A model generated the notes under the pieces. The model saw nothing but the letters and a program-made list of their open reading frames with translations. It had not been told where the DNA came from and did not search any database. Shown piece by piece: positions 34,623 to 55,529 of a stretch of DNA of 64,000 nt. Source of the stretch: a bacterium (GTDB taxonomy: Bacteria > Patescibacteriota > Saccharimonadia > UBA4664); contig CP064960.1 of the NCBI GenBank assembly GCA_016699105.1, positions 328,727 through 392,726 on the forward strand, given 5' to 3'. Numbering within the stretch: the first letter of the stretch is position 1; each line of letters opens with the position of its first letter. The position numbers were made by a program, and so were the translations under genes.

Positions 34623-34712
34623 GGAGAGGTCGCATAGTGGCCGAGTGCGCTCGCTTGGAAAGCGGGTATGGGGGCAACTCCATCGAGGGTTCGAATCCCT
34701 CCCTCTCCGCCA
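34623..34712 (+). tRNA. tRNA-Ser (anticodon GGA)
   Basis: Acceptor GGAGAGG/CCTCTCC, discriminator G, genomically encoded CCA, anticodon loop TTGGAAA, long variable arm (class II), T-arm GAGGGTTCGAATCCCTC. Confidence 0.85.
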
Positions 34713-42164: not shown

Positions 42165-44492
42165 ATGAGCGAACAGGTAGGGGTAGAGCAGGGGGTTGGC
42201 CTAGCGGGGGATAGTTCCGTTTGGGCAAATTCTATGCGTGAGCTTGATCAGCCTGAGACGGCACCAAATGAGCCGAGCTCCCGTGAGCAGGCGCAGCCAG
42301 TGGTTGACCAGTTTAAGCAACTTGAGCACGATTTTTGTGAGGCGTCCAAAATCATTCGTGCTGAGGAGCTGTTGGAGGGCCACTATGAAGATAGCGACGA
42401 ACCATCGGTAGAGTTAATCGCACATCGACGTGAGGCATTGATGGCAGAAATGGGACGCTTGCGCCAAGCATGCCAGGCTGATCATCCCTTAATTGCTTTA
42501 CGGGCAGAATACCTTACAGTTTGCCTATATGGTCGTATCGATCACAGCTATACCGATGATCGCTTACTCGATGATGATCTACGGCAAGAATTTGATTCGT
42601 ATCGTGACAAGTACGGCAATGGCTATTTTGATGATCAGCCAGAGTCGCTGGATGAGGACGAGAGCCAGAGTTTCAATCTACCCTTTGTTGACGTTTCGGG
42701 TAAAGTAGTCCTACCAGAGCAAGTATACGAGATGGCCAAGAAAGATCGCCCAAGTTTCGTAGGCGTTAAAGCGTTTCAGGTAGCCCGAGATGGAGTAGTA
42801 TTCCTGGCCGAATCGTTGCCGAGAGGTGGCTATGATGCCGTGAACGTGGTGGCGGAGGCCAGGTTAGATGCGCAGCAATTAGACCAAGCCGAAACGGTAA
42901 AACTGCAGCCTTCGCAGTTAGCGCGTTTTGAGTCTGTAGTGCAGCATGGTCGTCTCGATGTTTTGCGCGAATTACTCCAATGGGGGCCAGAGTTCTTGGA
43001 GAAGGGACACATACCATGGCAAAGCCAAGATCGACAAACTGCTACAGAACGGCGTCGTTACTGGGAAGAGCGGATACCAACATTAGATAGTGCTGAGTGG
43101 CGGCTCGTGTATGAGTCAACTGCGGATAGACAATATGATGAGGACAAACCTGTGTCCGTGGATGATTTCCTGCGTGAGGCATCGCTCGGCGAATATCTGA
43201 CTGAGTTAGGGATTGATTCGGGCAAGGCAAACCAGATGCAGGATCAAATGACAACGTATTTGCGCCAGGTACATCAACAACAAAACAAAGAGTTGGCGCC
43301 GGTGTTTGAGGTACATGCCCTTGATACTTCCAATGATACAACGATGCTCTGGCGTGATTTCTTTTTAGAGCCGGGAATGCAAGAAGCGTTGAGTAAACAG
43401 TTTGAACTCGATATGACCTCGATGTCTTTGGCTGCGCAACGACAGCTCGTGGCTTATCTGGGGCGCAGCACAATTGTGGAATTTAACCGGCTTAAACAGA
43501 TAGTTTCTGGGCGGGATGACGAATCAAAGCTTAGCTTGTTTGAATCGTTTTTAGCTTTAGAGCATGGTGACGAGTTTGGTGATAGCCTACTGACGATTGT
43601 CGAGCAATTACCAGAGGAAACATCGCAAGAAATCCTGAGCGAATTGGCAAATATTCGCCAATTGGCACATGAAAACGGTCAAGAATACCACGATTTTGAC
43701 CCTGAGTTTGCACAGCAATTTGAGCAAGCTTGGGTGTCGCGAACAACGCAGGTATTGTTGAATGCCCAAGAACTAGCCGAGGGGCGCACCCCGAGCGTTA
43801 CTAGGTATGATGGAACAGTCAAAACTATTAGCTCGATCGGTGAGGTAACCTGGGGATTACGATTGCTTAGGGACCGGCTGAGCCGGGAGCTGAGTCATTT
43901 ACGCGATGGTGGTGGCGTGATTGAGCGCCAAGACAGTACAACTACTACTATTCGAATGCCTGATGGTGGGTTGGAGCAATTGCGGCCGTATGCCGCTGAG
44001 CAAGATCAGCACGATGAAGAGCATCATTTTGATGATGAGGCACGCGCTAACTCATTGGCCAGTACTGATAGCTGGCCATTTACAGAATCTCGGAATGACC
44101 CCGCCAGAGTTCGGGCGTTAAGTATTCGGATTGATCGTGAGGGTATCTGGAGAAATGAGGCAGGCGAACCGCTGCGGGATCGTCAAAACAAACTCGTAAA
44201 CTTGCCGACAGGCGAGTATGGCTGGGTCTCATTAGATATTGGTGGATTGGTGGGTGAACCGGATGATCCCAATGTGCGTATTGGGGCGTTGATGGCAGCA
44301 GGGGCTGCTATATTTGCCAATCGTCGGGGTCAGGTTTCTCATCAGCATCATGTGAGAGAGGTGTTTGCTGAGCGCTTTGGTCGGAAAGAGGAGTTTGCGC
44401 GCTTGGTTCGCTTTCGGCAGGAGAGGTTGCTGCGACAGATATCGAAGACTGTTTCGCGCCCCGCTTCATCAGAGCAAAAACTTGCCTCATAG
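42165..44492 (+). CDS. large acidic hypothetical protein (775 aa)
   Basis: No recognisable motifs; strongly acidic. Confidence 0.5.
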   Translation: MSEQVGVEQGVGLAGDSSVWANSMRELDQPETAPNEPSSREQAQPVVDQFKQLEHDFCEASKIIRAEELLEGHYEDSDEPSVELIAHRREALMAEMGRLRQACQADHPLIALRAEYLTVCLYGRIDHSYTDDRLLDDDLRQEFDSYRDKYGNGYFDDQPESLDEDESQSFNLPFVDVSGKVVLPEQVYEMAKKDRPSFVGVKAFQVARDGVVFLAESLPRGGYDAVNVVAEARLDAQQLDQAETVKLQPSQLARFESVVQHGRLDVLRELLQWGPEFLEKGHIPWQSQDRQTATERRRYWEERIPTLDSAEWRLVYESTADRQYDEDKPVSVDDFLREASLGEYLTELGIDSGKANQMQDQMTTYLRQVHQQQNKELAPVFEVHALDTSNDTTMLWRDFFLEPGMQEALSKQFELDMTSMSLAAQRQLVAYLGRSTIVEFNRLKQIVSGRDDESKLSLFESFLALEHGDEFGDSLLTIVEQLPEETSQEILSELANIRQLAHENGQEYHDFDPEFAQQFEQAWVSRTTQVLLNAQELAEGRTPSVTRYDGTVKTISSIGEVTWGLRLLRDRLSRELSHLRDGGGVIERQDSTTTTIRMPDGGLEQLRPYAAEQDQHDEEHHFDDEARANSLASTDSWPFTESRNDPARVRALSIRIDREGIWRNEAGEPLRDRQNKLVNLPTGEYGWVSLDIGGLVGEPDDPNVRIGALMAAGAAIFANRRGQVSHQHHVREVFAERFGRKEEFARLVRFRQERLLRQISKTVSRPASSEQKLAS

Positions 44493-45194
44493 CTTGGGCG
44501 ATCTGGGGACTTTCGATGATTGTGCCCATGGCTTCATGCCCAAATGAGATGAACGCGACTTTGTCACCGTAAATATCGATTTCGACAGGCGCTTGATAAT
44601 CTTGTGGCTCGTACCAGGTACGGTTGAGCAGATGTTGTGCATCAATATTTGGGTCACGATTCGCATCTGGTATACGGGGAGTAAGAGCTTCGACGGTAAT
44701 GTTGAGTTTGGTTCGTTTGGCGATGTACTGACTCATGAACTGCGAACCCAGAAAGTCATTTTCAGCCGGTGTACGCATCAGGCTAATAGGTTGGCGGGTA
44801 CGCAGCATATCCTCGTATATCTGGATCAAGCCGGTTTTACCCTGATAGAAGCGGACACCAGGTTGCTCGAAAACGTATAAAAATAGGTCATGAGTTGGGG
44901 CATGAAGTTGCGCAGTCGGGTTTCGTGCTCAATTACCTGATTGCGACGGGATTCCATGAGCTTTTCCAGATTGGCAGGGTTTTCAGGGCGATAGGTCAAT
45001 TTGGAGCCAGTGCCGGATTTGACGGCGAGCGTGAGCTCTTCCAGTTGTTTAAGGACTTCATAAGCGTTGGTGCGAGTAATCTGGATCTTATCTGATAATT
45101 GTGGTGGTGTGAGGGTGCCGTTTGAGATTAGCGCCAGATAGGCGCGGGCTTGGGTTGTGTTGAGGCCGATTTGTTCGAGAAGTGAAGCGTCCAT
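44308..45194 (-). CDS. TrmB-family transcriptional regulator (HTH plus C-terminal sugar-binding-like domain), apparent frameshift near 44828
   Basis: N-terminal winged-helix 'LNTTQARAYLALISNGTLTPPQLSDKIQITRTNAYEVLKQL' and a TrmB-like C-terminal domain in the adjacent ORF. Confidence 0.55.
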
Positions 45195-46055
45195 AGGTGT
45201 AAGTTAGCACAAGCGGGATAAATTGTCAATGAGAAATTGACAGAAAATGGTTTGTTTTTATATCTGTTAGAATGTAATACGCGAGTGACTAATTGACATA
45301 TTAAAGTCCTTGTGGTAAAGTGTGTTCATTCGATGAGGCAGACATAAAATACCTACTCTCGAAAGTCAAGCTAACAATTACATACGTACACATTTGGTAA
45401 GACACGTTCTAGGGTCAGAAGCTCGAAAACGGTCCAAATATAGGTTGAGCCCTTGGGTGTTCCCTGTATCTGGATCGCGAGCGTGTCTTTCTATCGTTTT
45501 AAGGGCAGTTTTAGGACCTTTAAAACCACTAATTGAGATGATCTAGAACTCGGTTAGTACCCGCGAAGGTGCATCTAGTAACGGGTAACAGACGATTAAT
45601 GGACTATTCCTTGGTCCGTCGCACCAAGTACGCGCTTTGTAGCGAGATATCCGCGTGATGATCAGAAGGCATCATGAATGCAGGTTGGCGAAACTATTTG
45701 TTCGCCCGTCACGCGCTATCTCTCTGGAAAGAGAGAAATTTAAAAATCGATCACAAATTTTTGAGCGGAAGCTGCCTCTCGTAATCAATAGTCCCACGCC
45801 AACATGAATACCTGCGCGATCGGATGTACTAGAAGGAATACGGGAGACAGGTTCCACTGAAGGAACCAGTATTTGGGCGAAAGTCCAAAAAAGTACCTTT
45901 TGAAAAGTTGTTTGAATATGGTCGCTGGTCGGCGTTGCGGAAACGTATACGATGGTGTTTTCCCAAGGGGTATCGATGAGAATCGACGCTCGCTGGGGAG
46001 ACGCCAACGGGGCGGATCCAACAATGGGGCAGATGTGCTCCGGAAGGAGGTGGTC

Positions 46056-46463
46056 TTCGTGATCACCCAGACGACCGAGACCACGACCCCGACCGCCCCG
46101 GTGACAGGGCGGCTGGTTCCGCGGCCGCCCGCGGGCCGCAAGGGGGTCGTCAACCCCCGGACCCACGCGGCCACCCGCGAGGCGGCGCTGCTGGACCAAC
46201 TGGCGGCCGAGCTGACCGCCCACCAGGCGGAGGCCGCCGAGGCGGCGACCCGGCAGGGTTTGATCCTGCCACCCGTCGGCCGGGTCATTGACCCGGCCAC
46301 CCTCCGCGAGGAGGGTCTGCCCGAGATCGTGGGGCAGACCCGGACGGTGCAGTCGGCACGGCCTGCGACGCCGCGGCGTCAACCGATGATGCCCCGTAAC
46401 GGGGGGCGTCGCTACAATGGCCCGCTTACGCGGGCCGAGCTGGCGGCAAGGGTCGCCAGCTGA
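46056..46463 (+). CDS. Thr/Pro/Arg-rich hypothetical protein in the high-GC island
   Basis: GGAAGGAGG then GTG start. ~135 aa at ~70% GC. Confidence 0.4.
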   Translation, partial: FVITQTTETTTPTAPVTGRLVPRPPAGRKGVVNPRTHAATREAALLDQLAAELTAHQAEAAEAATRQGLILPPVGRVIDPATLREEGLPEIVGQTRTVQSARPATPRRQPMMPRNGGRRYNGPLTRAELAARVAS

Positions 46464-46764
46464 CAACCAGCCGCAGGTGAGGCAGCTGCGGGATATAAAT
46501 TCCTGCCTCAACGTTCGAGCCGGGTTGACGGCTATGAGCGGGCCAGCGCGAAAGCGCCCGACCGCATCACCATGGGTTGTTTTGACCCAGATCGTTTGAA
46601 CATTTTGTTCACAAGTTCGTTTGTGCCCGCCGAGAGCTTTTCTCGGTAGTACCACAAGGAAATCGTTTCGCGACTTTTTTCGAAAATCGCTGAACGATGT
46701 GGTGCGCCACACTTGTACATTTTTGTACGAATCGGGGAGGTCGGCCAACCGGCCGCTACCTCCC

Positions 46765-46819
46765 CCTGACTTCCGTGGATGCGTATCTGCGTTGATGAGT
46801 CCGAAAGGACGAAAAGTCA
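46765..46819 (+). ncRNA. type-III hammerhead ribozyme motif, copy 1 (C3U variant)
   Basis: Helix III CUGACU/AGUCAG, cleavage triplet UUC, helix I hairpin CGUGGAU-GCGU-AUCUGCG, core 'UUGAUGA' (U at position 3 instead of C), helix II GUCC-GAAA-GGAC, then GAAA. Confidence 0.5.
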
Positions 46820-46934
46820 GACCAGTACTTTGATTAGTGATAGATGTTCCGGACTGGATATTTGTTATTGAGATACACCGATGACAGGTATCCGGTCCGG
46901 GAAGCGCCCAGACCACAAATCCCCTGGAGGGGTC

Positions 46935-47174
46935 ATGCTTTGGAAGACCACGTATCAGGAATCACCGTATGAGAGTACGGGACAGTATGGAGTGTATGTT
47001 TGGCACCGGTTTTTCGGCCGGTGCCAAACAGGATGGCAGGTGGTGCCAATCGCCTGCCATCCTGATGGCGAAAAAAGAATGGATGCCTTTTTGGCTTTCA
47101 TTCGCCAACCGCGGCGGTTCGCCGCGGTGGAAAGGAGGGCAAAAGAGTTGGGCTTCAGACTTGACAAGGTCTAA
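46935..47174 (+). CDS. small hypothetical protein (79 aa) after conserved leader
   Basis: 'CCCCUGGAGGGGUCAUGC' leader/RBS conserved downstream of all three hammerheads. Confidence 0.35.
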   Translation: MLWKTTYQESPYESTGQYGVYVWHRFFGRCQTGWQVVPIACHPDGEKRMDAFLAFIRQPRRFAAVERRAKELGFRLDKV

Positions 47175-47224
47175 CTCTGGCCGCTGATCTGTCGGCTTCA
47201 GGTCAAACGCTGCGCCGAGGGGTG

Positions 47225-47420
47225 TTCAAATCCTCGGAAGTACCAAAGGAACTCAGGTTTAGAACCCGAGTGGTGCGAGACGGGTAACCGGGAGCAACCC
47301 ATAATATGCTCCCCACTCAACCCGAGTGTTTCATATCTTCTGCGTTCCTACCGCCGATTACCGCGTAATCGGCGGGTGAGAGGGGTGATGAAACACTCAG
47401 GCTGGGTGAAAGCTCAGAAA
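47225..47420 (+). repeat. repeat B copy 1 (diverged)
   Basis: Shares 'GCTCCCCAC..AACCCGAG...TTCA.A.CTTCTGC.TTC', 'GTGAGAGGGGT' and 'TCAGGCTGGG' with copies at ~50072 and ~52217. Contains an 11-bp perfect hairpin CCGCCGATTAC-CGC-GTAATCGGCGG (47352-47376). Confidence 0.5.
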
Positions 47421-47496
47421 TGTACCTTCAGTACTAAGTTCACGCGGATGGTCCGCGTGGTGCGTACATGCGCATGGATCACCCTTAGGAGGTGAA

Positions 47497-48423
47497 ATGA
47501 CTGCGTATATGGCATTGGATCCTCGTCCGGCGGCTCGACAGACAATGCTCGAGCTTCTCTCCACCCCGACCTTTGGGGTGGAGGTGACGGTGCCCGAGCT
47601 GGGGTCGGCGTGCCTTCTGGGCAATGCTGACCCCCAGCACACCGGGGGGCGGGCAGATATGTCAGCCATCGAGGGCCTTGCCGCGTTGTTTCGCGGTGAG
47701 GCACAGGTAGCCACCGTGCTGCCTGACCTCGATAGCCTTGGTTCCATGGCGGTGCTGGACATCGCCATGGACGCCATTGCCCAGCTCGGTGCGTTGGCAG
47801 GAGAGATCCTGCGGCGCATCGAGCTAATCGGCCGTGCTGATCGCTTCGAGAGAGGCGAATGGCCCGGTCGGCGACCCCTGCCGACCCTCGACCAGCCGTG
47901 GTCGGACGTGCTTTCGGGCGCGTCAGACACACGCGAGCTTGCGGCCATGGGGGCCGTTGTCGCGGACCACCGGCTGCCGGTGGAGGAGCGGGTGCGTTTG
48001 CTGCGCATCTGGCTCTCCACCGGCGAGGAGCCGTTGGAGTATCGCCAGCGAGTTGAGGCTGAACGGGCCGAGATGCTGGCTGCCCTGACGGGTGGCGAGA
48101 TCTTGGTTCGCGAGGCTGCCAAGGGCCATATCGCCACGGTGGTTTCAACCCACCGGGCTGGCATGGCCATTGGCTACCACCGGGCTCCGGTGGTAGTGGC
48201 GCAGAACCCGGCTTTTAGTTTTAAGGGTTCGGCGCCGGTCGTTAAGTTCACGATAGCCCAGTTCAGAGTGGGTTACGTGGATCTGTCGGCCGCTCTGACT
48301 GAGCTGGCCGGACGTGAGCCCGGCTGGGGCGGATCGCCAACGATTGGCGGCTCACCCCAGGGGGTCTCGTCGGGCTTGTCGCTCGACGAGGTTGTAGCGG
48401 TCGTGGAGGCTCATCTCCTCTGA
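47497..48423 (+). CDS. hypothetical protein (308 aa) in the high-GC island
   Basis: AGGAGGTGA RBS with 8-nt spacing; no recognisable domain. Confidence 0.5.
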   Translation: MTAYMALDPRPAARQTMLELLSTPTFGVEVTVPELGSACLLGNADPQHTGGRADMSAIEGLAALFRGEAQVATVLPDLDSLGSMAVLDIAMDAIAQLGALAGEILRRIELIGRADRFERGEWPGRRPLPTLDQPWSDVLSGASDTRELAAMGAVVADHRLPVEERVRLLRIWLSTGEEPLEYRQRVEAERAEMLAALTGGEILVREAAKGHIATVVSTHRAGMAIGYHRAPVVVAQNPAFSFKGSAPVVKFTIAQFRVGYVDLSAALTELAGREPGWGGSPTIGGSPQGVSSGLSLDEVVAVVEAHLL

Positions 48424-48456
48424 CTGCGCCCATTCGAATCGAGCCTTCGGAAGGAG

Positions 48457-48648
48457 GTGAAAGAAATGAGAGGGCCACTGTTCGTGATCGCCCTGGGGGC
48501 CGCTATGGCGACCTTCGGGTGGTGGGTAGAAAGGAAGCATCAGGCGGCGGTGGGGCCGGTTGATCCGGCTTGCGCTCTGATGCTCCTGGGAGGGGTTATA
48601 GCTTTTCTTGGCGCTGCTGCCTTTGGGGCAGCGGTCGTCAGTGGGTGA
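48457..48648 (+). CDS. small two-TM membrane protein (63 aa)
   Basis: AGGAGGTGA RBS; two hydrophobic helices. Confidence 0.4.
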   Translation: MKEMRGPLFVIALGAAMATFGWWVERKHQAAVGPVDPACALMLLGGVIAFLGAAAFGAAVVSG

Positions 48649-48733
48649 GCACTGCCTTCCAACCCCAACTGCACCGGCAGTCATCCGGGACAAGGCGCTC
48701 AAAAGGAAATTGGCCAACAGTGCCAATGCGCGC

Positions 48734-48890
48734 CAGGGAGCGACTCCTCAAGACGCTGAACCACGGTTAATACCCGTTGGTCACTGTCATCGCGACAACA
48801 ACAGGTTTGCCGGTTTCCTCCGCAAGGAAATAACCGGTGCAACTCGGCGGATGTGTATCCGCCCTGACGAGTCCGAAAGGACGAAAGTTG
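48734..48890 (+). ncRNA. ~157-nt structured repeat A, copy 2, ending in a canonical type-III hammerhead ribozyme (48839-48890)
   Basis: Helix III GCAAC/GUUG(G), cleavage after CUC (C48845), helix I GGCGGAU-GUGU-AUCCGCC, core CUGACGA, helix II GUCC-GAAA-GGAC, GAAA. Upstream ~100 nt is near-identical to copy 3. Confidence 0.65.
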
Positions 48891-49028
48891 GCTGTTCTTT
48901 AAAGAGATTCCTCGATATTCGGTTGGTTCTGAGAGTAATTGCCAGGTCGGATATTCGCTATTGCGTGGAGCGATGGCAGATATCCGGTCTGGGGGAATAG
49001 CTCAGGCTACGAGATCCTTGGAGGGGTC

Positions 49029-49493
49029 ATGCGAGTTTTTCGAGAGTTCCGTGTTCGTGCCGGAAGCACGTTAGAGACGGATGGGGTGCGATTCGACGCC
49101 CCTGGACCTTGGGGATGGAGCACCCAGATCCCGTATCCGCGCGGTGGACGTGCCGCGGGTGTGGGGTTAGTGGAAAGTCCAAGTACTTTCCACGGCGAGA
49201 GCCTTGGTTGGCTGTGCAGCGAGAAATCGCTGCGTCTCGGTGCAAGATTTGCACCGAGCTTGACCACAACCCAGCCTTTACCAGGCTGGAAGGATCGGCT
49301 GGCCGAGCTGAGGGGGCTCGAGCAGACAATGCTGGACGCTCTGGTAGCGCTGCTCAGCTGCGAACGGCCCGTAGACCTGCGGGTTGAGTCCCTTGAGCGG
49401 GCGGGGCTGCTCGTGGTGGGGGCGGTATCGTGCTCACGAAGCACGAGCCGGATATCGCCCGACGATTGGGCCTACTGTTCCGTAAGGAGGTAA
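49029..49493 (+). CDS. hypothetical protein (155 aa) after conserved leader
   Basis: The 'CCUUGGAGGGGUCAUGC' leader is the only support. Length is uncertain given assembly indels. Confidence 0.35.
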   Translation: MRVFREFRVRAGSTLETDGVRFDAPGPWGWSTQIPYPRGGRAAGVGLVESPSTFHGESLGWLCSEKSLRLGARFAPSLTTTQPLPGWKDRLAELRGLEQTMLDALVALLSCERPVDLRVESLERAGLLVVGAVSCSRSTSRISPDDWAYCSVRR

Positions 49494-49795
49494 TTGAAGT
49501 TGTCTCCTGCGTCGAGGAGCACGCAATCGGGGGGTACCTCAAGGTCCTCTGCCGAAGGTCGCGGGCCCAGGGGTGCCCTCATACGGTTGGTCTGTTTACT
49601 CAGACGGACCAGAGGGGGCTTACTCCCTCCTCGGTAAGGAGGATTACTTCCCAGGAGCAATCAGGAGCTGGGACAGTCTCCTGAAGCAGTTTGCTCAAAT
49701 CGTGGAGGGCCGCGCATCCGCAGCGACGACATCTGTCGGCTGAGGCGCGAACTCAACGAGCCTTTGAAAGGAGGTGGAACGAATCGGTCCACCAA

Positions 49796-50229
49796 TGCTG
49801 TTTCTTGGCACGGTGATGGCTGTGCGGGCTGTCTGGGCTCTATGTAGTGGAAGCTACAAGGGTAAGCCAGCCCGGCGGGGATCGCCAATATGGTATCCAT
49901 TGTGGTTTGCGCTTGCCGCAAGCGTGAGCGTTGCCGTGATGGGGCCATATTTATCGGCTCCGAATGATTCGGGCCCACCGTCAGACGGCTTCTGGCAAAA
50001 CCCGCCCTCTGATCGCGGATCGAAAAGATCAGAACTGCCACATAAGGACTTCGCGAACGCGGAGGTGGCGCAAAACGTATTTACGGTAAAGGGGAGTCGC
50101 CTAAGAGCTCCCCACCCAACCCGAGGGCTTCACACCTTCTGCATTCCGACAACTCATTTGAGCAATCGGAGGGTGGTCGGAGTGGTGGAGCTCTCAGGCT
50201 GGGCGCCAATCAGGTTCCCAGTAGTTTGA
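49796..50229 (+). CDS. small hydrophobic hypothetical protein (extent uncertain)
   Basis: GAAAGGAGGTGG RBS. The N-terminal two-TM segment resembles the 48457 ORF. The 3' part may be out of frame. Confidence 0.3.
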
Positions 50230-50250
50230 AACACCCGTGAGAGGGGTAAG
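50072..50250 (+). repeat. repeat B copy 2
   Basis: 'GGTGGCGCAAAACGTATTTACGGTAAAGGGGAGTCGCCTAAGAGCTCCCCACCCAACCCGAGGGCTTCACACCTTCTGCATTCCGAC...' shows ~90% identity over ~85 nt to copy 3. Includes the GGGGAG-N11-CTCCCC hairpin. Confidence 0.55.
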
Positions 50251-50252
50251 CG

Positions 50253-50537
50253 ATGAACGTCGTCTTCGGTACCGTGAAATTCGTCAACGCCGAACGAGGG
50301 TTTGGCTTCGTCCGTCTCGATGGGGGCGCCGGAGATGTCCACTTCTGGCTCGATCGCGGATTTACCTCCGCAGTGGGCTGGCGGGCGGACCCAATGGGTG
50401 CCATGCGAAGCGGTGAAAACTTTGGTCGGCTGGAAATCGTTCGACCGGCGACACCAAAGCCTGGCGAACGTCTGGCCCTGAGTATTATCTGCCGGAACCG
50501 CACAGACTCGCCGCGGTCAGACCCAAGCGAAAGCTAA
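50253..50537 (+). CDS. cold-shock-domain-like small protein (degenerate CSD)
   Basis: 'GTVKFVNAERGFGFV' resembles the CspA RNP1 motif 'GTVKWFNAEKGFGFI'. The rest diverges. Confidence 0.4.
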   Translation: MNVVFGTVKFVNAERGFGFVRLDGGAGDVHFWLDRGFTSAVGWRADPMGAMRSGENFGRLEIVRPATPKPGERLALSIICRNRTDSPRSDPSES

Positions 50538-50563
50538 GGGCCCGACTGCCGAGTGGTGGGCGT

Positions 50564-51322
50564 TTGAAGTGCCCTGGAAGGCGGCGCAGGCCGAAATCGA
50601 AGCCCGAAAAGAGCAGTACCCGGTTGGTCTGTATTACTGGCCGATCGAGTATGGAGACGGACGCGCTGCACGTGTCATACCGGTGCCCAGGGAGCACGAA
50701 ACGTATACGAGCCACTACGATTACGGCCGTGTACCTGCTCACTGGGCGGTGGTGGAGCGTGCAGGGAGTTACCGCACGAGTCGTTTGCCCGTGGGATGGT
50801 TCCGGCGGATTGGGACACTTATTTGTCGCCGGGCTTGCTCGAGCGTTTCTCGATTGTTCGGGGCGAGCTGAGTATGTGGCTGCCCTGCGATCCGAACTGA
50901 CTGACCTAGAGGATCGTGTTGTGGTTGCCGAGCGCGCGTCGGGTCCGAAGAGGGCGAAGCCAAAATTGCGGCTGGATGGCGTCGGAAACGGCGAGATCCA
51001 CTACATGGGGGTAAGCCTTCAAGTGACAGGTTTTCGTATCACAACGGGCAAGAAGGAAGGCTTCAGTTGGCCTGGCGACCCTGACGACCCAGAGTACACC
51101 GAGGTCACCTATAGCATCGAGCTGGGTGGCCATGAAGTCTCGGCCCTACCAGGTCCGGTGGTGGTGTTGGCGAGAGCCGCCGAGAAGAAGGAAGACGTGC
51201 GTGATAGCTGGGATATCTTGATATCTGAGCTCAGCCGGGGAGTACAACACGACCTTAGCTGGATGAGAAAGCGAGTTGTTGCGATTCACGCCGAGATCGA
51301 ACGCCAGGAGGCCTCAGAGTAG
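50564..51322 (+). CDS. hypothetical protein (frame ambiguous; alternative ORF 50569-50871)
   Basis: Two overlapping long ORFs in different frames. High GC makes ORF calls unreliable. Confidence 0.3.
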   Translation: MKCPGRRRRPKSKPEKSSTRLVCITGRSSMETDALHVSYRCPGSTKRIRATTITAVYLLTGRWWSVQGVTARVVCPWDGSGGLGHLFVAGLARAFLDCSGRAEYVAALRSELTDLEDRVVVAERASGPKRAKPKLRLDGVGNGEIHYMGVSLQVTGFRITTGKKEGFSWPGDPDDPEYTEVTYSIELGGHEVSALPGPVVVLARAAEKKEDVRDSWDILISELSRGVQHDLSWMRKRVVAIHAEIERQEASE

Positions 51323-51370
51323 GAATTCTGGGACAAAACGCGCATAAGGACCAGCTCGTGAGCTGGGCGT

Positions 51371-51528
51371 CAGGGGAGCGACTCCTCAAGACGTTGAACC
51401 ACGGTTAATACCCGTTGGTCACTGTCATCGTGACAACCAAAGGTTTGCCGGTTTCCGCCGCAAGGAAATAACCGGTGCAACTCGGCGGATGTGTATCCGC
51501 CCTGACGAGTCCGAAAGGACGAAAGTTG
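51371..51528 (+). ncRNA. ~158-nt structured repeat A, copy 3, ending in a canonical type-III hammerhead ribozyme (51477-51528)
   Basis: Hammerhead core identical to copy 2. 8 substitutions over ~157 nt between the copies. Confidence 0.65.
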
Positions 51529-51577
51529 TCAGCCAGTTGGTCCGGGAAACGCCCAGACCACGAGGCCCTGGAGGGTC

Positions 51578-51811
51578 ATGCTGCAGCTGGTTTCGATTCA
51601 TTGGGGTCCGCTCGACGAGCCCCACGAGGACGTCATCATTCACGATGGAGTCCCGGCGCGGCGACTTGCCGTGCCGAACTACTACGATGAAGGGCAGACG
51701 GTCGAGGAGTCGATCTTCTGCCCGAGCACAAGGTGGGCAGCAAGTTACATCGCTGCCCTCGTGGCGCGGGGCTATCCCGGCCGGAGCCACATGGCACGGA
51801 TCTTGAGATGA
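51578..51811 (+). CDS. small hypothetical protein (77 aa) after conserved leader
   Basis: The 'CCCUGGAGGGUCAUGC' leader is the only support. Confidence 0.35.
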   Translation: MLQLVSIHWGPLDEPHEDVIIHDGVPARRLAVPNYYDEGQTVEESIFCPSTRWAASYIAALVARGYPGRSHMARILR

Positions 51812-51912
51812 GGGCGTTTGGCCGCGCGCTGCCGAATTCTGACCGAGCGTCCCCAGTTAGGATAACTGCCAAACTCCTGATCTCGCAATTCGATTTTAAG
51901 GAGGGATGGGAA

Positions 51913-52044
51913 ATGTTTCTGACTGGACAGCCTGATGACTGTGGCTGCCCGGTTAGAGCAGGAGGTAGTCTCGGCCAGGATGAGCGAAACTGGAGCTTCG
52001 AGTGCCATCTTTGCGGAGCAAGTGGTGTCGCGTACGGGTTTTAG
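51913..52044 (+). CDS. Cys-rich small protein (43 aa, CxC...CxxC zinc-ribbon-like)
   Basis: AAGGAGGGA RBS 6 nt upstream; 'DCGCPV...ECHLCG'. Confidence 0.35.
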   Translation: MFLTGQPDDCGCPVRAGGSLGQDERNWSFECHLCGASGVAYGF

Positions 52045-52216
52045 ATATCCGTATGACGCCCAGGCTTTTCTGGAGACCCATCCCGAGGCTCAGCGAATGT
52101 AGTAGAGCTGGCCGCACCAGGAATCCGGCTGCACTACCTCCCGGAGGTGCAGTACCAGACCAATACGCCGGAAAGCGTTGAATTTTCCGGAAGTGCCAAA
52201 GGAACCCGTCAAGGAA

Positions 52217-52360
52217 TGGGTGGCGCAAAATCGTTCTACGGTAAAGGGAGTCGCCTAAGAGCTCCCACCTAACCCGAAGGCTTCATACCTTCTGCATTCT
52301 GACTGCTTTATGAAATATCAGCGAGCAGTTGGAGTGATGGAGCCTTCAGGTTTGGTTGAC
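52217..52360 (+). repeat. repeat B copy 3 at right edge of the high-GC island
   Basis: Near-identical to copy 2 over ~85 nt. GC drops to host level immediately downstream. Confidence 0.55.
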
Positions 52361-52435
52361 CAAAATCAGATTGATTGTTCGCAGCCAAAATTGATACTAT
52401 TGGCGAACTTGTAACTACGACAATATCTACTTAAG

Positions 52436-53875
52436 TTGCCAGACGGCGCCGAGGAGCCTACCATAGAACTAGACGTTTGCGGGGGTATTTTGGCCGATTT
52501 GACCGAAAAATGTGGCGTTTTTGGCGCTGTTACTGAGCATAGTTATACCGCTCGGGTGACGTATTATGGGCTGTGGGCACTGCAGCACCGCGGCCAAGAG
52601 GGCAGTGGTATCGCTAGTTGGGATGGCCAGCGCATGCACTCTCGTGTGGGCGCGGGACTGGTGGCGCACGTGTATGATCCAGGAGATCTCGAGCGGCTTG
52701 ATGGGTGCATAGCTATTGGCCACAATCGATATTCGACATCTGGTGCCGATGGCGGGGCACATGCTCAGCCGGTAATTGACCGAGATTTAGATCTGGCTTT
52801 CGCACATAATGGTAATTTGCCTTCTACTAAGGCGCTGGAAGCGTTTTTGCGCAAACACCATATCAATCCACGCCCATTGAATGATTCCGAAATGATGACA
52901 CGGGCAATTGGTGTGTATTTGCGTGACGGGATGAGTCTTGAAGATGCAGTTGTGGCGGCATGGCCGTTGTTTACTGGCGCTTTTTCGTGCGTGGTCATGC
53001 AAGAAGGTCATTTGGTGGCATTTCGAGATGAGTGCGGGATTCGGCCATTGGCTCTGGGAAAACTTGAGGATGGTTACTGTGTATCGAGTGAATCGTGTGC
53101 CTTTGATACAGTGGGCGCCGCTTTTTGCGCGAAGTGAAGCCTGGAGAACTTTGTCAGTCTGACGGCTGAAAAGTGACGGCACGCCAAGTGGTGACGGCTC
53201 GACCCAAATTGGATGTGTTTGAGTTGGTCTATTTTGCCCGCCCTGATAGTTTGATCGCTGGCCGCAAAGTTAATGAAGTCCGGCGGGAAATGGGCAGACA
53301 GTTGGCTCGAGAATTTCCAGTTGTCGCTGATGTTGTCATACCAGTGCCCGATTCGGGGATTCCGATGGCCCTAGGATACAGTGAGCAGAGTGGGGTGCGA
53401 TTTGATCATGGTTTTATCAAAAACCGCTATATTCACCGGACGTTTATTAAAGCCGACACAAGTAATGCGGAGCGGGATGTGCGAGTAAAGCTCAATCCCG
53501 TGCCGGAAGTAGTCATGGGTAAAAGCGTGGTGGTAATCGATGATTCCATAGTGCGAGGAACCACAACCGGGCAAATCGTTGGCATGCTGTATGGAGCCGG
53601 TGCTCAGTGTTCATGTTCTGGTGAGTTCGCCGCCGGTTTTGTACCCAGACTTTTATGGAATCAACACGCCGAGCCAGACAGAATTGATAGCCGCCAATCG
53701 CAGCGTTGAAGAAATTCGGGAGCATATCGGTGCGGATAGCTTGGGCTACCTGTCGGTGACTGGTATGGTAAAAGCAACCGGATTGGCACGTCAAAAGTTG
53801 AACCTGTCGTGTTTACTGGTGAATATCCGATTGATATCGGTGAGCGGGCGCTCACTATTCAAAAAGTTTTACTAG
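52436..53875 (+). CDS. purF: amidophosphoribosyltransferase PurF, at least three apparent frameshifts
   Basis: 'CGVFGAV' N-terminal nucleophile region, 'IGHNRYSTSG', PRTase motif 'VVVIDDSIVRGTT'. Four collinear ORF pieces; start uncertain. Confidence 0.8.
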
Positions 53876-53940
53876 ACAAGAAGCCGGTACTCGTCTAGAA
53901 TGGCTCGTTACGCTATGATAGACAAAGGAAATTTATAGAT

Positions 53941-54838
53941 ATGAAATTACGACAAATCATTGGAATCGCAGTCATCATTTTAATGGCTGCGGGAGGCGTG
54001 GCCTTGGTGCGGTCGCAGCCAGCGGGTGCACCAGAAAATAGATTGAAGGTAGCGGCCAGCTATTATCCGTTTTATGAAGTTGCCGCTAGAGTAGGCGGCG
54101 ATCATGTGGTCGTATCCAACCTAACGCCTGCAGGAGCGGAACCCATGATTTCGAACCATCAGCCCAAGATCTAGCTGGGGCTCAAGATTCGGCGGTTTTT
54201 GTATATAATGGTGTCGGCTTTGAACCATGGGTAGAAGGATTCGTTCGTGATTACAAAGGTGCTGCCGTTAAGGGTAGTGACAAGATAGAGCTGCGGACTT
54301 CGGCTGAGGGCGTGGTTGATCCTCACTATTGGCTCGATCCGGTCTTGATGCAGCAGGTAGTTGATACGGTCAGAGAAGCTTTGGCCAAGGCCGATCCCGC
54401 CAACGCTGGTTACTACCAGACAAAAGCAGATGAGTATAAGGGCAGTTGGACGATCTCGATAATCGTATGGGTTTGAGCTTGGCACGCTGTCAAACCAGCG
54501 TTATTGTGACAAATCATGCGGCATTCAATTATTTGGCGTACCGCTATGGGTTAACGAGTCAGGCAATTACCGGCTTATCGCCAGAAGCCGAGGCTAGTCC
54601 AGAGCAGCTGGCAGCACTATCGACGCTCGTAAAAGAACAAGGCATCAAATATGTCTTTATGGAAAAATTAGCATCACCCAAATTGGCTGAAACATTAGCT
54701 CAAGAAGCAGGAGTTCAAGTAGGTGTGCTTGATCCCATTGAAGGCTTAACGACTGCGGATATAGCCGCCGGAAAGGATTACTCGAGTGTCCAAAAAGAAA
54801 ATTTGGCAGCCCTCCAACGAGCCCTTACATGCCGGTAA
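53941..54838 (+). CDS. znuA: metal (Zn/Mn) ABC transporter substrate-binding protein, TroA/ZnuA family, apparent frameshifts
   Basis: Signal peptide, 'VAASYYPFYEVA', then '...HDFEPSAQDLAGA...VVDPHYWLDP' in shifted frames. Confidence 0.7.
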
Positions 54839-55529
54839 GCAACAACTGCTGCTAGACCTTGATGATGTGACAGTTGAATTGGGTGGTCAAAAGGTCTTGG
54901 CCGACATAAATTTGTGTATTCATCGCGGTGAATTTATTGGGCTCATTGGCCCCAATGGGGCAGGCAAAACGACTCTCTTGCGAGTGATGCTGGGCTTGCT
55001 TCAGCCAAGCAAAGGTCGAGTCGATTTTGCGGATAGCACCAAGGTGGCGTATGTGCCACAGCGTGGAGCGGCCATGGGAGGAGCGGTGCCGGTAAGCGTG
55101 TCAGAAGTTGTAAGTATGGGAAGTACTGATCGAGAGGCGGTGTCACAGGCGCTAGCCGATGTTGATTTGAGTGAGCTGGCGACTAAGCGGTTTGGTGAGC
55201 TGAGCGGTGGCCAACAGCAGCGGGTGCTGATCGCGCGGGCGCTAGCTGGTCAGGCGCACATGCTGATACTCGACGAACCAACAACCGGTATCGATGATGC
55301 TACTGAAATAGATTTCTTTAATATTCTGAAACGGCTCAAGAAACTGGGCGTTACGATCTTGATGGTATCGCATGATCTAGAAGCGGTACTTGAGGAGGCT
55401 GGCAGAGTAATTTGTCTGAATAGGCGAGTGCTGTACGATGGTTTGCCGCAGCAATTTGAAGTCAGCAGTATTGGCCCGATATGTATGCGGCCAAGCATCG
55501 GCAGTTGCATCATCAACATCCGGAGGTAG
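54786..55529 (+). CDS. znuC: metal ABC transporter ATP-binding protein (ZnuC-like); start uncertain
   Basis: Walker A 'GPNGAGKTT', 'LSGGQQQRVLIARAL', Walker B 'LILDEPTTGID'. Confidence 0.8.
   Translation: MSKKKIWQPSNEPLHAGKQQLLLDLDDVTVELGGQKVLADINLCIHRGEFIGLIGPNGAGKTTLLRVMLGLLQPSKGRVDFADSTKVAYVPQRGAAMGGAVPVSVSEVVSMGSTDREAVSQALADVDLSELATKRFGELSGGQQQRVLIARALAGQAHMLILDEPTTGIDDATEIDFFNILKRLKKLGVTILMVSHDLEAVLEEAGRVICLNRRVLYDGLPQQFEVSSIGPICMRPSIGSCIINIRR

Follow-up and report, generated by a model that had tools for sequence, protein, structure and literature searches.

We report here an array of genes interspersed with hammerhead ribozyme motifs and a second structured RNA element in a chromosome of the Saccharimonadales, a lineage of the Candidate Phyla Radiation (CPR). 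The array lies in a 64,000-nt stretch of DNA (GenBank assembly GCA_016699105.1, contig CP064960.1, positions 328,727 to 392,726 of the forward strand), hereafter the window, in whose coordinates all positions are given. It comprises seven genes, here named X0, Y1, X1, X1b, Y2, X2 and Y3, three type III hammerhead motifs (HH1 to HH3) and three copies of a repeat that we call B (B1 to B3). This island is a resident variable-gene region of the chromosome, occupying a fixed site between the promoter and leader that adjoin a TrmB-family gene on one side and a purF-like gene on the other. The original prediction, made from the sequence without database searches, had read the island as an array of cassettes whose ribozymes are positioned to cleave a polycistronic transcript, and this proves to be the best-supported reading: the hammerheads are intergenic and show covariation, no internal promoter or terminator is apparent, and differences between strains break at the RNA elements. 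We posit, with fair though far from complete confidence, that the array yields a self-processing polycistronic transcript, cut or insulated by the ribozymes and by B, and that the same RNA elements serve as recombination anchors.

Architecture of the array

Both in the window and in the related locus L047 (identifiers beginning with L denote comparison loci and contigs), the elements follow each other on one strand throughout, in the order promoter-leader-X0-HH1-Y1-B1-X1-X1b-HH2-Y2-B2-X2-HH3-Y3-B3-purF. The array opens, on the + strand, with a sigma-70-type promoter (45293..45321; TTGACA-17-TAAAGT with a TG extension), divergent from the TrmB gene, and a structured 5' leader RNA of about 550 nt (45322..45870), which is the constant, host-side part of the locus. 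The first gene, X0 (46059..46463), encodes about 135 aa from a GTG following GGAAGGAGG and is called at 196/201 aa from an upstream start; in intact loci it is likewise 201 aa as called and about 135 aa from the GTG led by a Shine-Dalgarno (SD) site. Y1 (46935..47174, 79 aa), X1 (47497..48423, 308 aa) and X1b (48466..48648, 60 aa) are of the same length in intact loci. The remaining genes are broken in the window: Y2 (49029..49743, about 238 aa) is frameshifted and measures 238/239 aa where intact, X2 (50253..51322) appears as 94 plus 252 aa instead of 358/349 aa, and Y3 (51578..52102) as 77 plus 43/55 aa instead of 175 aa. On the right flank lies the host purF-like amidophosphoribosyltransferase gene (52436..53875), frameshifted in the window and intact at 470-488 aa in L005, L043 and L047.

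These frameshifts had inflated an initial count of at least ten open reading frames (ORFs) of 43-308 aa. The ORFs of 154 aa, 94 plus 252 aa and 77 plus 43 aa are parts of three genes, which measure 238, 358 and 175 aa, respectively; a 151-aa ORF overlaps and runs through B2, and intact alleles hold seven genes. The further description of the island as three tandem, diverged modules holds for its RNA elements, which do repeat, and fails for its proteins: a comparison across modules detected no similarity among the X proteins or among the Y proteins. As all genes lie on one strand, a consensus scan of the island recovered no internal promoter- or terminator-like sites above shuffle expectation, and the promoter is conserved in five loci, a single transcription unit is plausible.

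The hammerhead ribozymes

A pattern search recovers the three predicted hammerhead-like motifs, all on the + strand, with none elsewhere in the 64-kb window and 0 expected from shuffled sequence. HH1 lies at 46765..46820, HH2 at 48838-48892 and HH3 at 51476-51530, the latter two each continuous with about 100 nt of conserved upstream sequence (48736..48892 and 51374..51530). The covariance model R2, built from seven copies of this hammerhead subtype (alignment A5) and run with filters off, matches the window only at 46756-46830, 48828-48902 and 51466-51540, with 73-87 bits (HH1 73.1, HH2 85, HH3 86.6); neither R2 nor R1, the covariance model of B, detects a degenerate hammerhead or B copy at the left boundary of the island. 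The motifs form a three-helix junction in which loops cap stems I and II and stem III is open. HH2 and HH3 have the canonical core CUGACGA..GAAA and the cleavage triplet CUC, with a stem III of 4 bp, a stem I of 6 bp closed by the loop UGUGUA, and the stem II GUCCGAAAGGAC. In a permissive scan of 45-53.5 kb with the Rfam family RF00008 (Hammerhead_3), HH2 scores 40.5 bits (E 3.2e-6) and HH3 43.3 bits (E 5.3e-7), both cmscan alignments spanning model positions 1-54; R2 aligns all three copies.

HH1, which reads UUGAUGAG..GAAA, is homologous to HH2 and HH3 (repeat family D2) and goes unreported by Rfam even at E<=10 in the 45000-53500 scan. Its core is UUGAUGA rather than CUGAUGA (C3 to U) and its triplet UUC, and an R2 match of 73.1 bits, equal to its own, recurs at the corresponding position in L043 and L047. 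As C3 pairs with G8 in the active site of the hammerhead, HH1 is probably much less active, being weakened or even inactive. The only core departures in the family are this one and that of the first copy in L024 (U4 to C). Across 24 members of the family, 12 of the 15 pairs have changed on both sides and 95.8% of the cells are paired; the covariation score of 0.68 compares with 0.16 for shuffles, of which 0/500 score as high, and no slid register comes close. By this covariation the island hammerheads belong to a true type III family whose pairs covary strongly.

Every hammerhead is followed by a hairpin, the sequence GGAGGGG and an AUG. The conserved hairpin-plus-SD leader noted in the original prediction (GGGAA.CGCCCAGACCAC..CCUGGAGGGGUCAUGC) does occur three times (repeat family D5; alignment A1), and its stated position about 100 nt downstream of each hammerhead applies to HH1 and HH2 but not to HH3, where the distance is only about 10-15 nt. 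Leader 1 (46847..46938) forms a 24-bp hairpin followed by GGUCCGGGAAGCGCCCAGACC, the SD GGAGGGG and the AUG, and folds with -49.7 kcal/mol (z -4.19); leader 2 (48940..49031), with a hairpin of about 22 bp and the same SD and AUG, has a z of -3.69. Both belong to repeat families D5 and D17. Leader 3 (51540..51583), a member of D5, is a shortened copy in which the hairpin is truncated, consisting of GGUCCGGGAAACGCCCAGACC plus the SD and AUG. The 155-nt blocks holding HH2 and HH3 together with about 100 nt upstream (48736-48890 and 51374-51528; repeat D1) are 97% identical to each other, and crosswise comparison gives 97-98% across strains, an identity within and across strains that suggests gene conversion or strong selection.

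Related arrangements occur in sister loci. In L006 a hammerhead of the island type lies upstream of a 374-aa ORF that is followed by B (HH-ORF374-B). In L024 a hammerhead ends 20 nt before a homologue of X1 (a member of what we term the 308-family), with a second copy at the end of the island, and in L026 one copy lies on either side of the 308-family gene. The island subtype, as defined by the loop 1 UGUGUA and the stem II GUCCGAAAGGAC, is further present in 15 contigs of the IMG/VR database, 13 of phage length and two of 366 and 377 nt. Among the former, the phage contigs L032 (7054-8897, - strand), L034 and L038 carry 2-4 hammerheads within 2-3 kb, in short gaps between small ORFs, and are natural parallels of the island layout. 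The two short records, L033 (366 nt) and L035 (377 nt), have a loop 1 and stem II almost identical to those of the island hammerhead and are of the size of plant virusoids or satellite RNAs.

Repeat B

B had been rightly recognised as a conserved repeat, its RNA structure having escaped notice. The window holds three copies on the + strand, B1 (47205..47415, core 47294-47415), B2 (50034..50212, core 50094-50212) and B3 (52160..52364, core 52248-52364), and the pattern search places none elsewhere in the 64 kb (0 expected in shuffles). They score 103, 117.7 and 110.8 bits, respectively, with R1. The fold consists of a small GC-rich hairpin that abuts the 5' side of an irregular hairpin of about 95 nt (about 40 bp), with two conserved 1x1 mismatches near the foot of the latter and a conserved bulge of 8-9 nt, (C/U)A(C/U)CUUCUGC. 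Folding z values range from -4.6 to -5.9 (B1 -5.93, B2 -4.6). B1 displays the full anatomy, namely a 5' extension (CGGAAGUACCAAAGGAAC..UGGUGC), the GC hairpin, and the long irregular hairpin with the bulge AUAUCUUCUGC. The extension (C(G/A)GAAGUGCCAAAGGAAC ... GGUGGCGC) is present in copies after Y-type genes and also in L001 and L006, and is missing from L005 and from B3 of L043. In B3, the long hairpin and about 90 nt beyond it form a constant junction with purF. A hairpin, AUCGGCUCCGAAUGAUUCGGGC, is common to the sequences upstream of B2 (49955-49975) and of the L006 B (1341-1362), and the conserved non-coding part of some B copies may thus reach about 250 nt.

Covariation again speaks for the fold. 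Among 11 distinct sequences, 11 of 35 pairs have changed on both sides and 93% of the cells pair; the 385 cells include 301 Watson-Crick pairs and 57 G·U as against 6 C·A, which shows that the fold belongs to the + strand, i.e. to the transcript. The 5' GC hairpin is represented by six unrelated sequences, all of which pair. We also considered that B might be coding, as B2, L005 and L006 share the translation ..TRGLHTFC.PT..LSNRRVVGVVE.SGW; this is ruled out by an in-frame stop in B1 and by the pair-compensating nature of the changes. A pseudoknot of the bulge with the 5' C(G/A)GAA was likewise set aside, there being one compatible A/G covariation, too few sequences and too many alternative partners.

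The searches recovered relatives of B only from the Saccharimonadia: L001 and L005 were recovered among 185,579 species representatives and L006, L013 and L017 from metagenomes, the remaining hits of the B-core pattern being chance matches. Two pattern scans and R1 detected no B in viral contigs, 24 pattern hits there being due to chance. None of the 4227 Rfam families matches B at E<=10 in 45000-53500 or in L001-L006, and no match was returned by the models of the known self-cleaving classes (twister, twister-sister, pistol, hatchet, HDV-like, hairpin, VS and glmS).

As B stands where hammerheads stand in sister loci, we regard it as a candidate processing RNA and possibly a ribozyme. The discovery of twister and later classes began from just such a clue, that of unrelated RNA elements in equivalent intergenic positions (PMC6765202). 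The likeness extends to the 308-family gene, before which stands a hammerhead in L024 and L026 and, in the window, B. Unlike the twister-type classes, none of which it matches with cmscan at E<=10, B is dominated by one long hairpin instead of folding as a compact junction or pseudoknot. In anatomy B may also be likened to the RNase III processing signals that separate the early genes of phage T7: both are long irregular hairpins with an asymmetric internal loop between cistrons, and cleavage would leave a protective 3' stem. B differs from them in its sequence-conserved bulge, its conserved A·C and C·A mismatches and its ribozyme partners. The shape of its long hairpin fits a nuclease substrate equally well. 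We offer only as a conjecture, and a rather unlikely one, that B substitutes for hammerheads at cassette junctions in Saccharimonadia as an undescribed class of processing RNA, possibly a new self-cleaving ribozyme, and constitutes with them an integrase-free, RNA-punctuated cassette platform driven from a single promoter-leader region that is conserved.

A conserved promoter and leader at a fixed site

The promoter block, ATTGACAtA..TGnTAAAGT, aligns with those of L019, L022, L024 and L026 (alignment A6), making five loci with the window, and diverges from a TrmB-family gene in the window, L019, L022, L043, L047 and L054. We presume that it drives the whole array. Downstream of it, the leader of about 550 nt contains blocks near-identical to those of L005, a different species with different cargo, up to about 45868. 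It has a minimum free energy of -173 kcal/mol (z -4.35), and GAGGCAG at about 45336 may pair over a long range with CUGCCUC at about 45772; no Rfam family matches it at E<=10. It is a candidate for a new structured RNA in its own right.

In L005, which derives from a named uncultured Saccharimonadales metagenome-assembled genome, both the TrmB-promoter-leader region and the B-purF-znuA junction are as in the window, and between them lie a gene for an AAA-ATPase and a 453-aa gene, with no hammerhead. The shared flanks with other cargo indicate that the site is constant and the cargo varies; L019, L022 and L054 have yet other gene sets at the TrmB locus. The original prediction had overlooked that the promoter and leader ahead of the array are conserved, and that in other genomes the locus holds other cargo. 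A shorter version of the leader, closed by an 11-bp long-range helix (GAGAGGCUUCG / CGAAGCCUCUC), is seen in L026 (2038-2283) and L024 (184-194 and 1584-1730). The L024 leader contains, between blocks separated by 60 nt in L026, a 308-family cassette of about 1.39 kb that is led by a hammerhead.

Segment replacement between strains

The island recurs in at least nine further contigs (L043-L051), reached through two rare-family look-ups and derived from several other sequencing samples (L043 from DRR830131, L047 from ERZ3602260, L048 from ERZ22157947), at 92-94% identity. L047 aligns to the window at 92.5% identity across 44483-55000, both junctions included, and L043 at 93-94% over 43013-50889 and 52269-54511. 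Relative to L047, L043 has in place of X2 an allele of 46-48% identity and lacks HH3, Y3 and the 5' extension of B3, which leaves it two hammerheads at the locus. Their identity is about 97% through B2, drops below 50% from about 6 nt beyond the pairing at the 3' end of the B2 hairpin, and resumes at the first base of the B3 long hairpin, which is common to L043, L047 and L005 despite their differing upstream cargo.

This replacement is reflected in the genes. Synonymous divergence (dS) between L043 and L047 is 0 for X0, Y1 and X1b, 0.26 for X1 and purF, 0.69 for Y2 and saturated for X2; protein identity is 61% for Y2 and 48% for X2, as against 95-100% for neighbouring genes. X0 alleles are 99% identical in L043 and L047, Y1 is identical in L043, L047 and L048, and X1b in eight other contigs. 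Y2 exists in at least three alleles of 42-61% identity, the window copy being 59% and 42% identical to those of L043 (6001-6720) and L047 (8001-8717), and at the nucleotide level the window and L047 are 70-79% identical in Y2 and about 99% in the flanking RNA elements. The high or saturated dS of Y2 and X2 relative to their neighbours points to old alleles moved by recombination rather than to local mutation. Y2 has CxxC pairs, and its alleles are diverse while the flanks in the population are 93-99% identical; from this sequence diversity, the gene looks to be under balancing or diversifying selection of the arms-race kind.

A proposed model of transcript processing and segment exchange

We propose that the seven or so genes are most likely transcribed as one long RNA from the conserved promoter, along which hammerhead and B would alternate strictly (X0-HH-Y1-B-X1/X1b-HH-Y2-B-X2-HH-Y3-B-purF). 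Each hammerhead would cleave itself just 5' of its own body, leaving the upstream message with a 2',3'-cyclic phosphate end; the downstream message would start with a 5'-OH, the folded ribozyme, a long hairpin and an exposed SD site. At the other junctions B might have the equivalent role, probably as a processing or 3'-end-stabilising site that is either cut by RNase III or self-cleaving. Together with the GC hairpin abutting it, B could define or protect the 3' end of the preceding message, and it may control the translation of the next gene. The near-identity of the RNA elements between strains further suggests that they serve as anchors for the homologous exchange of divergent segments.

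Synthetic insulators of the RiboJ type place a hammerhead plus a hairpin before a ribosome-binding site, and the layout here invites analogy with them: a hammerhead, a stable hairpin, and an exposed SD and start codon, such that cleavage would remove the upstream context. Unlike these, the present elements are natural and chromosomal, and the hairpin, of 22-24 bp in modules 1 and 2, is truncated in module 3.

Several observations weigh against this model. Weak internal promoters are conceivable, consensus scanning being limited in a CPR organism. Many 308-family genes at the TrmB locus have neither a hammerhead nor B, from which it follows that the RNA elements are dispensable for that gene. 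HH2 and HH3 score under the Rfam gathering cut-off of 48.5 bits, and the deviations of HH1 and of the first L024 hammerhead at core positions that are normally invariant imply that not every copy need cleave. B is known from about six independent sequences of one class, and its conservation may partly reflect shared ancestry. Finally, it could be selection on B, and not recombination inside it, that gave rise to the break points at its edges.

Alternative explanations

The foremost alternative, which we nevertheless hold to be unlikely, is that the island is a phage or mobile-element remnant or a moron block, whose hammerheads are inherited baggage without any processing logic. The phage-length contigs with the identical hammerhead subtype, sometimes at 2-4 per few kb, are in keeping with it, as is a foreign-looking composition: the GC content at third codon positions (GC3) of X1 is 0.74-0.84 against a host GC of about 0.5, a difference compatible with foreign origin. 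The original prediction had named an actinobacterium or its phage as a plausible donor; the X1 family, however, is overwhelmingly Patescibacterial, and X1 has no tblastn match among phages and plasmids. GC3 in the 308-family is 0.67-0.84 in lineages with hammerheads or B, with host GC again about 0.5, and 0.38-0.50 in L022, L027 and L052, near or below the GC of the surrounding locus. Members of the 308-family also occur in mobile or defence-like contexts, a distant homologue lying near a TraG-like type IV secretion system coupling protein, RadC, Fic and APH in L020 (3597-9728), and another, in Nesterenkonia flava (L056, 1193-17431), near IS110 and IS3 transposases and a methyltransferase, AAA_5 / DUF2357-PDDEXK and NucS as restriction genes. 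Against this, neither the island ORFs nor the scanned neighbours contain integrase, structural or replication domains; the island proteins have no match in the viral contigs that bear hammerheads, nor in the collections of phages and plasmids, in which tblastn with X1 in particular returned nothing, arguing against a phage or plasmid origin of that gene; and B is absent from the viral contigs scanned. The dS of X0, Y1, X1 and X1b does not exceed that of purF, which, like the identity of the window to L047 over both junctions, fits vertical inheritance, and the roughly 99% conservation of the RNA elements between variable genes argues for selection on the elements themselves.

The absence of integrase, transposase and reverse transcriptase domains from the island ORFs and 10 neighbouring ORFs also upholds the initial exclusion of a prophage, insertion sequence, retron, diversity-generating retroelement or integron. 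The only match at Rfam gathering level in the 64-kb window is a tRNA with a long variable arm (34623-34709, 54.4 bits), which is not an obvious integration site for the island, as no integrase adjoins it.

Somewhat less probable still is that B acts mainly as a translational or cis-regulatory leader of the next gene (X1, X2 or purF), its bulge masking the downstream ribosome-binding site, with no processing involved. B always lies 27-115 nt before a start codon and precedes purF in four genomes irrespective of cargo. Its bulge, (C/U)A(C/U)CUUCU, resembles the anti-SD end of 16S rRNA, whereby B may affect the ribosome-binding site of the next gene: the B1 bulge UAUCUUCU (47336-47345) is complementary, with G·U counted, to 8 nt of the X1 SD AGGAGGUG (47483-47490), 71 nt downstream, and B2 has a 6-nt match to the SD region of X2. 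However, complementarity to purine-rich, SD-like strings easily arises by chance, and for B3, L001 and L006 the best partners of the bulge lie upstream, within B's own 5' extension. In L006, moreover, B is followed by a hairpin resembling an intrinsic terminator and an AT-rich spacer of about 250 nt, with no gene start, and the variable GC hairpin abutting B fits a role at the 3' end of the upstream gene.

An integron-like array, or a cluster of attC sites lacking an integrase (CALIN), in which B is a single-stranded attC-type DNA site and the cassettes are moved by a recombinase encoded elsewhere, strikes us as quite improbable, for all its superficial resemblance. As in integrons, one promoter is followed by same-strand genes of no known function, an imperfect hairpin of about 95-120 nt recurs at their boundaries, an RYYYAAC-like box (ACYYAAC) is present at the 5' foot of every B, cargo differs by genome at a fixed site, and strain differences break at hairpin edges. 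Yet no IntI or other tyrosine recombinase is encoded in the island ORFs, in 10 ORFs on the upstream side, or among the called genes of L043, L047 and L019-L026. The 3' box reads GCTGGGT, GCTGGGC or GTTTGGT and not GTTRRRY, so that the R' box is missing, and the AAC/GTT triplet has an A·C mismatch in two of the three window copies. An attC site folds as the bottom strand, which here would hold C·A mismatches, as the top strand has 57 G·U cells and the bottom strand 6. Extrahelical bases are lacking, and B instead has symmetric 1x1 mismatches and one conserved 8-nt bulge on the top strand. An integron would share only the last 6 nt of the site between strains with different upstream cassettes, whereas the whole B3 hairpin is shared. 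Hammerheads, furthermore, occupy the equivalent junctions, segments hold one or two genes, and B copies are 2.1-2.8 kb apart. We reject B as an attC site because its G·U pairs favour one strand, because the R' box does not fit, because no recombinase was detected and because strains share the whole hairpin.

That the tandem hammerheads release unit-length RNAs of 2.07 and 2.64 kb to be ligated into circles, in the manner of retrozymes, is very improbable: the three hammerheads do lie in tandem on the same strand, spaced at 2072 nt (HH1-HH2) and 2638 nt (HH2-HH3), long rod-like hairpins adjoin them, and the subtype matches the virusoid-sized IMG/VR records, but there is no reverse transcriptase, the units differ wholly in coding content and hold ordinary SD-led genes, HH1 is probably impaired, and the same locus has two hammerheads in L043 and none in L005. 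To an assembly artefact, be it a chimeric join, high-GC contamination or collapsed or duplicated repeats, we assign a negligible chance notwithstanding the systematic homopolymer errors of the window, as independent assemblies of other samples (e.g. L043, L047 and L048) repeat the element order and span both junctions at 92-94% identity, and as the repeat copies have diverged to 63-84% identity; the chimera and duplication scenarios raised in the original prediction are thereby refuted.

Relation to known systems and significance

We return to the self-processing transcript as our preferred reading. Type III hammerheads have reportedly been described from bacterial and phage genomes by Perreault et al. 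in 2011. With these the present copies share capped stems I and II, the CUGANGA..GAAA core (in HH2 and HH3), the NUH triplet, a location between genes on the coding strand, their multiplicity within an operon, an occurrence in phage contigs and a proposed cutting of polycistronic mRNA. They differ in their setting in a CPR (Saccharimonadales) chromosome, in scoring under the Rfam gathering cut-off, in their regular alternation with a second, undescribed RNA and in one mutated core. Our search of the literature found no report of hammerheads in Saccharibacteria or the CPR, and nothing relevant on hammerheads together with integrons.

The hammerheads add to a known class new members from a group of hosts in which it had gone unreported. 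The idea of operon punctuation is itself already in print as a proposal: self-cleaving ribozymes of bacteria and phages, including classes that cluster together, have been suggested, no more, to process polycistronic transcripts, and the roles of bacterial hammerhead and twister ribozymes are described as "largely elusive" (PMC6765202). What is new here is that hammerheads are regularly paired with the RNA B, that the promoter and leader form a conserved platform, and that RNA elements frame hypervariable alleles. With a single conserved promoter, and with ribozyme and second RNA in strict alternation, the locus offers an unusually clean natural test case, for which natural variants are at hand: loci lacking one hammerhead unit (L043) or all of them (L005), and core mutants in HH1 and the first L024 copy. 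It also contributes, from the little-studied CPR, two RNA motifs that Rfam does not contain (B and the leader of about 550 nt), and illustrates how conserved RNA elements can frame hypervariable genes, hinting at an arms-race function. As standard Rfam thresholds, under which these scores fall, miss all three ribozymes in routine annotation, such arrays are probably under-annotated.

Sequence quality and composition of the window

Alignment of the window with L047 reveals 41 indels, the majority of them 1-nt deletions in the window within homopolymers of G, C or A. About 30 such one-base homopolymer deletions lie in 44300-55000 (e.g. at 44868, 50480, 51779, 52246, 53122 and 53469), and they have fragmented purF, TrmB, X2, Y2 and Y3. 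The window as a whole probably stems from a long-read assembly that was not polished, and ORF-based findings elsewhere in it need equal caution.

Between 45.75 and 46.5 kb the GC content increases from 0.43-0.47 to 0.61-0.72, and past 52.3 kb it is back at about 0.51. The predicted rise and fall at the island borders thus stand, and a uniform 65-70% in between does not: the island is mostly at 0.52-0.66, with a dip to 0.52-0.55 near 46.5-47.5 kb.

The cargo proteins

Searches of Pfam, NCBIfam and PADLOC gave as the only clue to cargo function a weak, sub-cut-off match of X2 residues 6-31 to the cold-shock domain (Pfam E 9e-4, 19.5 bits against a cut-off of 27; NCBIfam Csp E 9e-5). X0, with a GC of 69-72% and a product rich in Ala, Arg and Pro, matches no family in these three collections. 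Relatives in the databases are few for Y2 and X2, with one or two for the pair and one for X2.

X1, in contrast to these, belongs to a large and well-conserved family of at least 490 homologues of 45-72% identity, almost all from Patescibacteria, whose genes often lie at the TrmB locus without a hammerhead or B. An exact look-up of the 308-aa window protein found no record, and X1 has no sequence match in Pfam, NCBIfam, PADLOC or the PDB. Its AlphaFold model (predicted local distance difference test 90.9) finds RecJ, RecJ2 and PAP phosphatase as the best PDB matches with Foldseek (E 2.5e-4, probability 1.0), at a template modelling score of only about 0.3, and the DPQH and DxD motifs are invariant in the family (alignment A7). 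The modelled fold resembles that of the DHH/DHHA1 (RecJ-like) phosphoesterases. X1 is always followed by X1b, a predicted small membrane protein, and an analogous small ORF follows the X1 homologue in L019.

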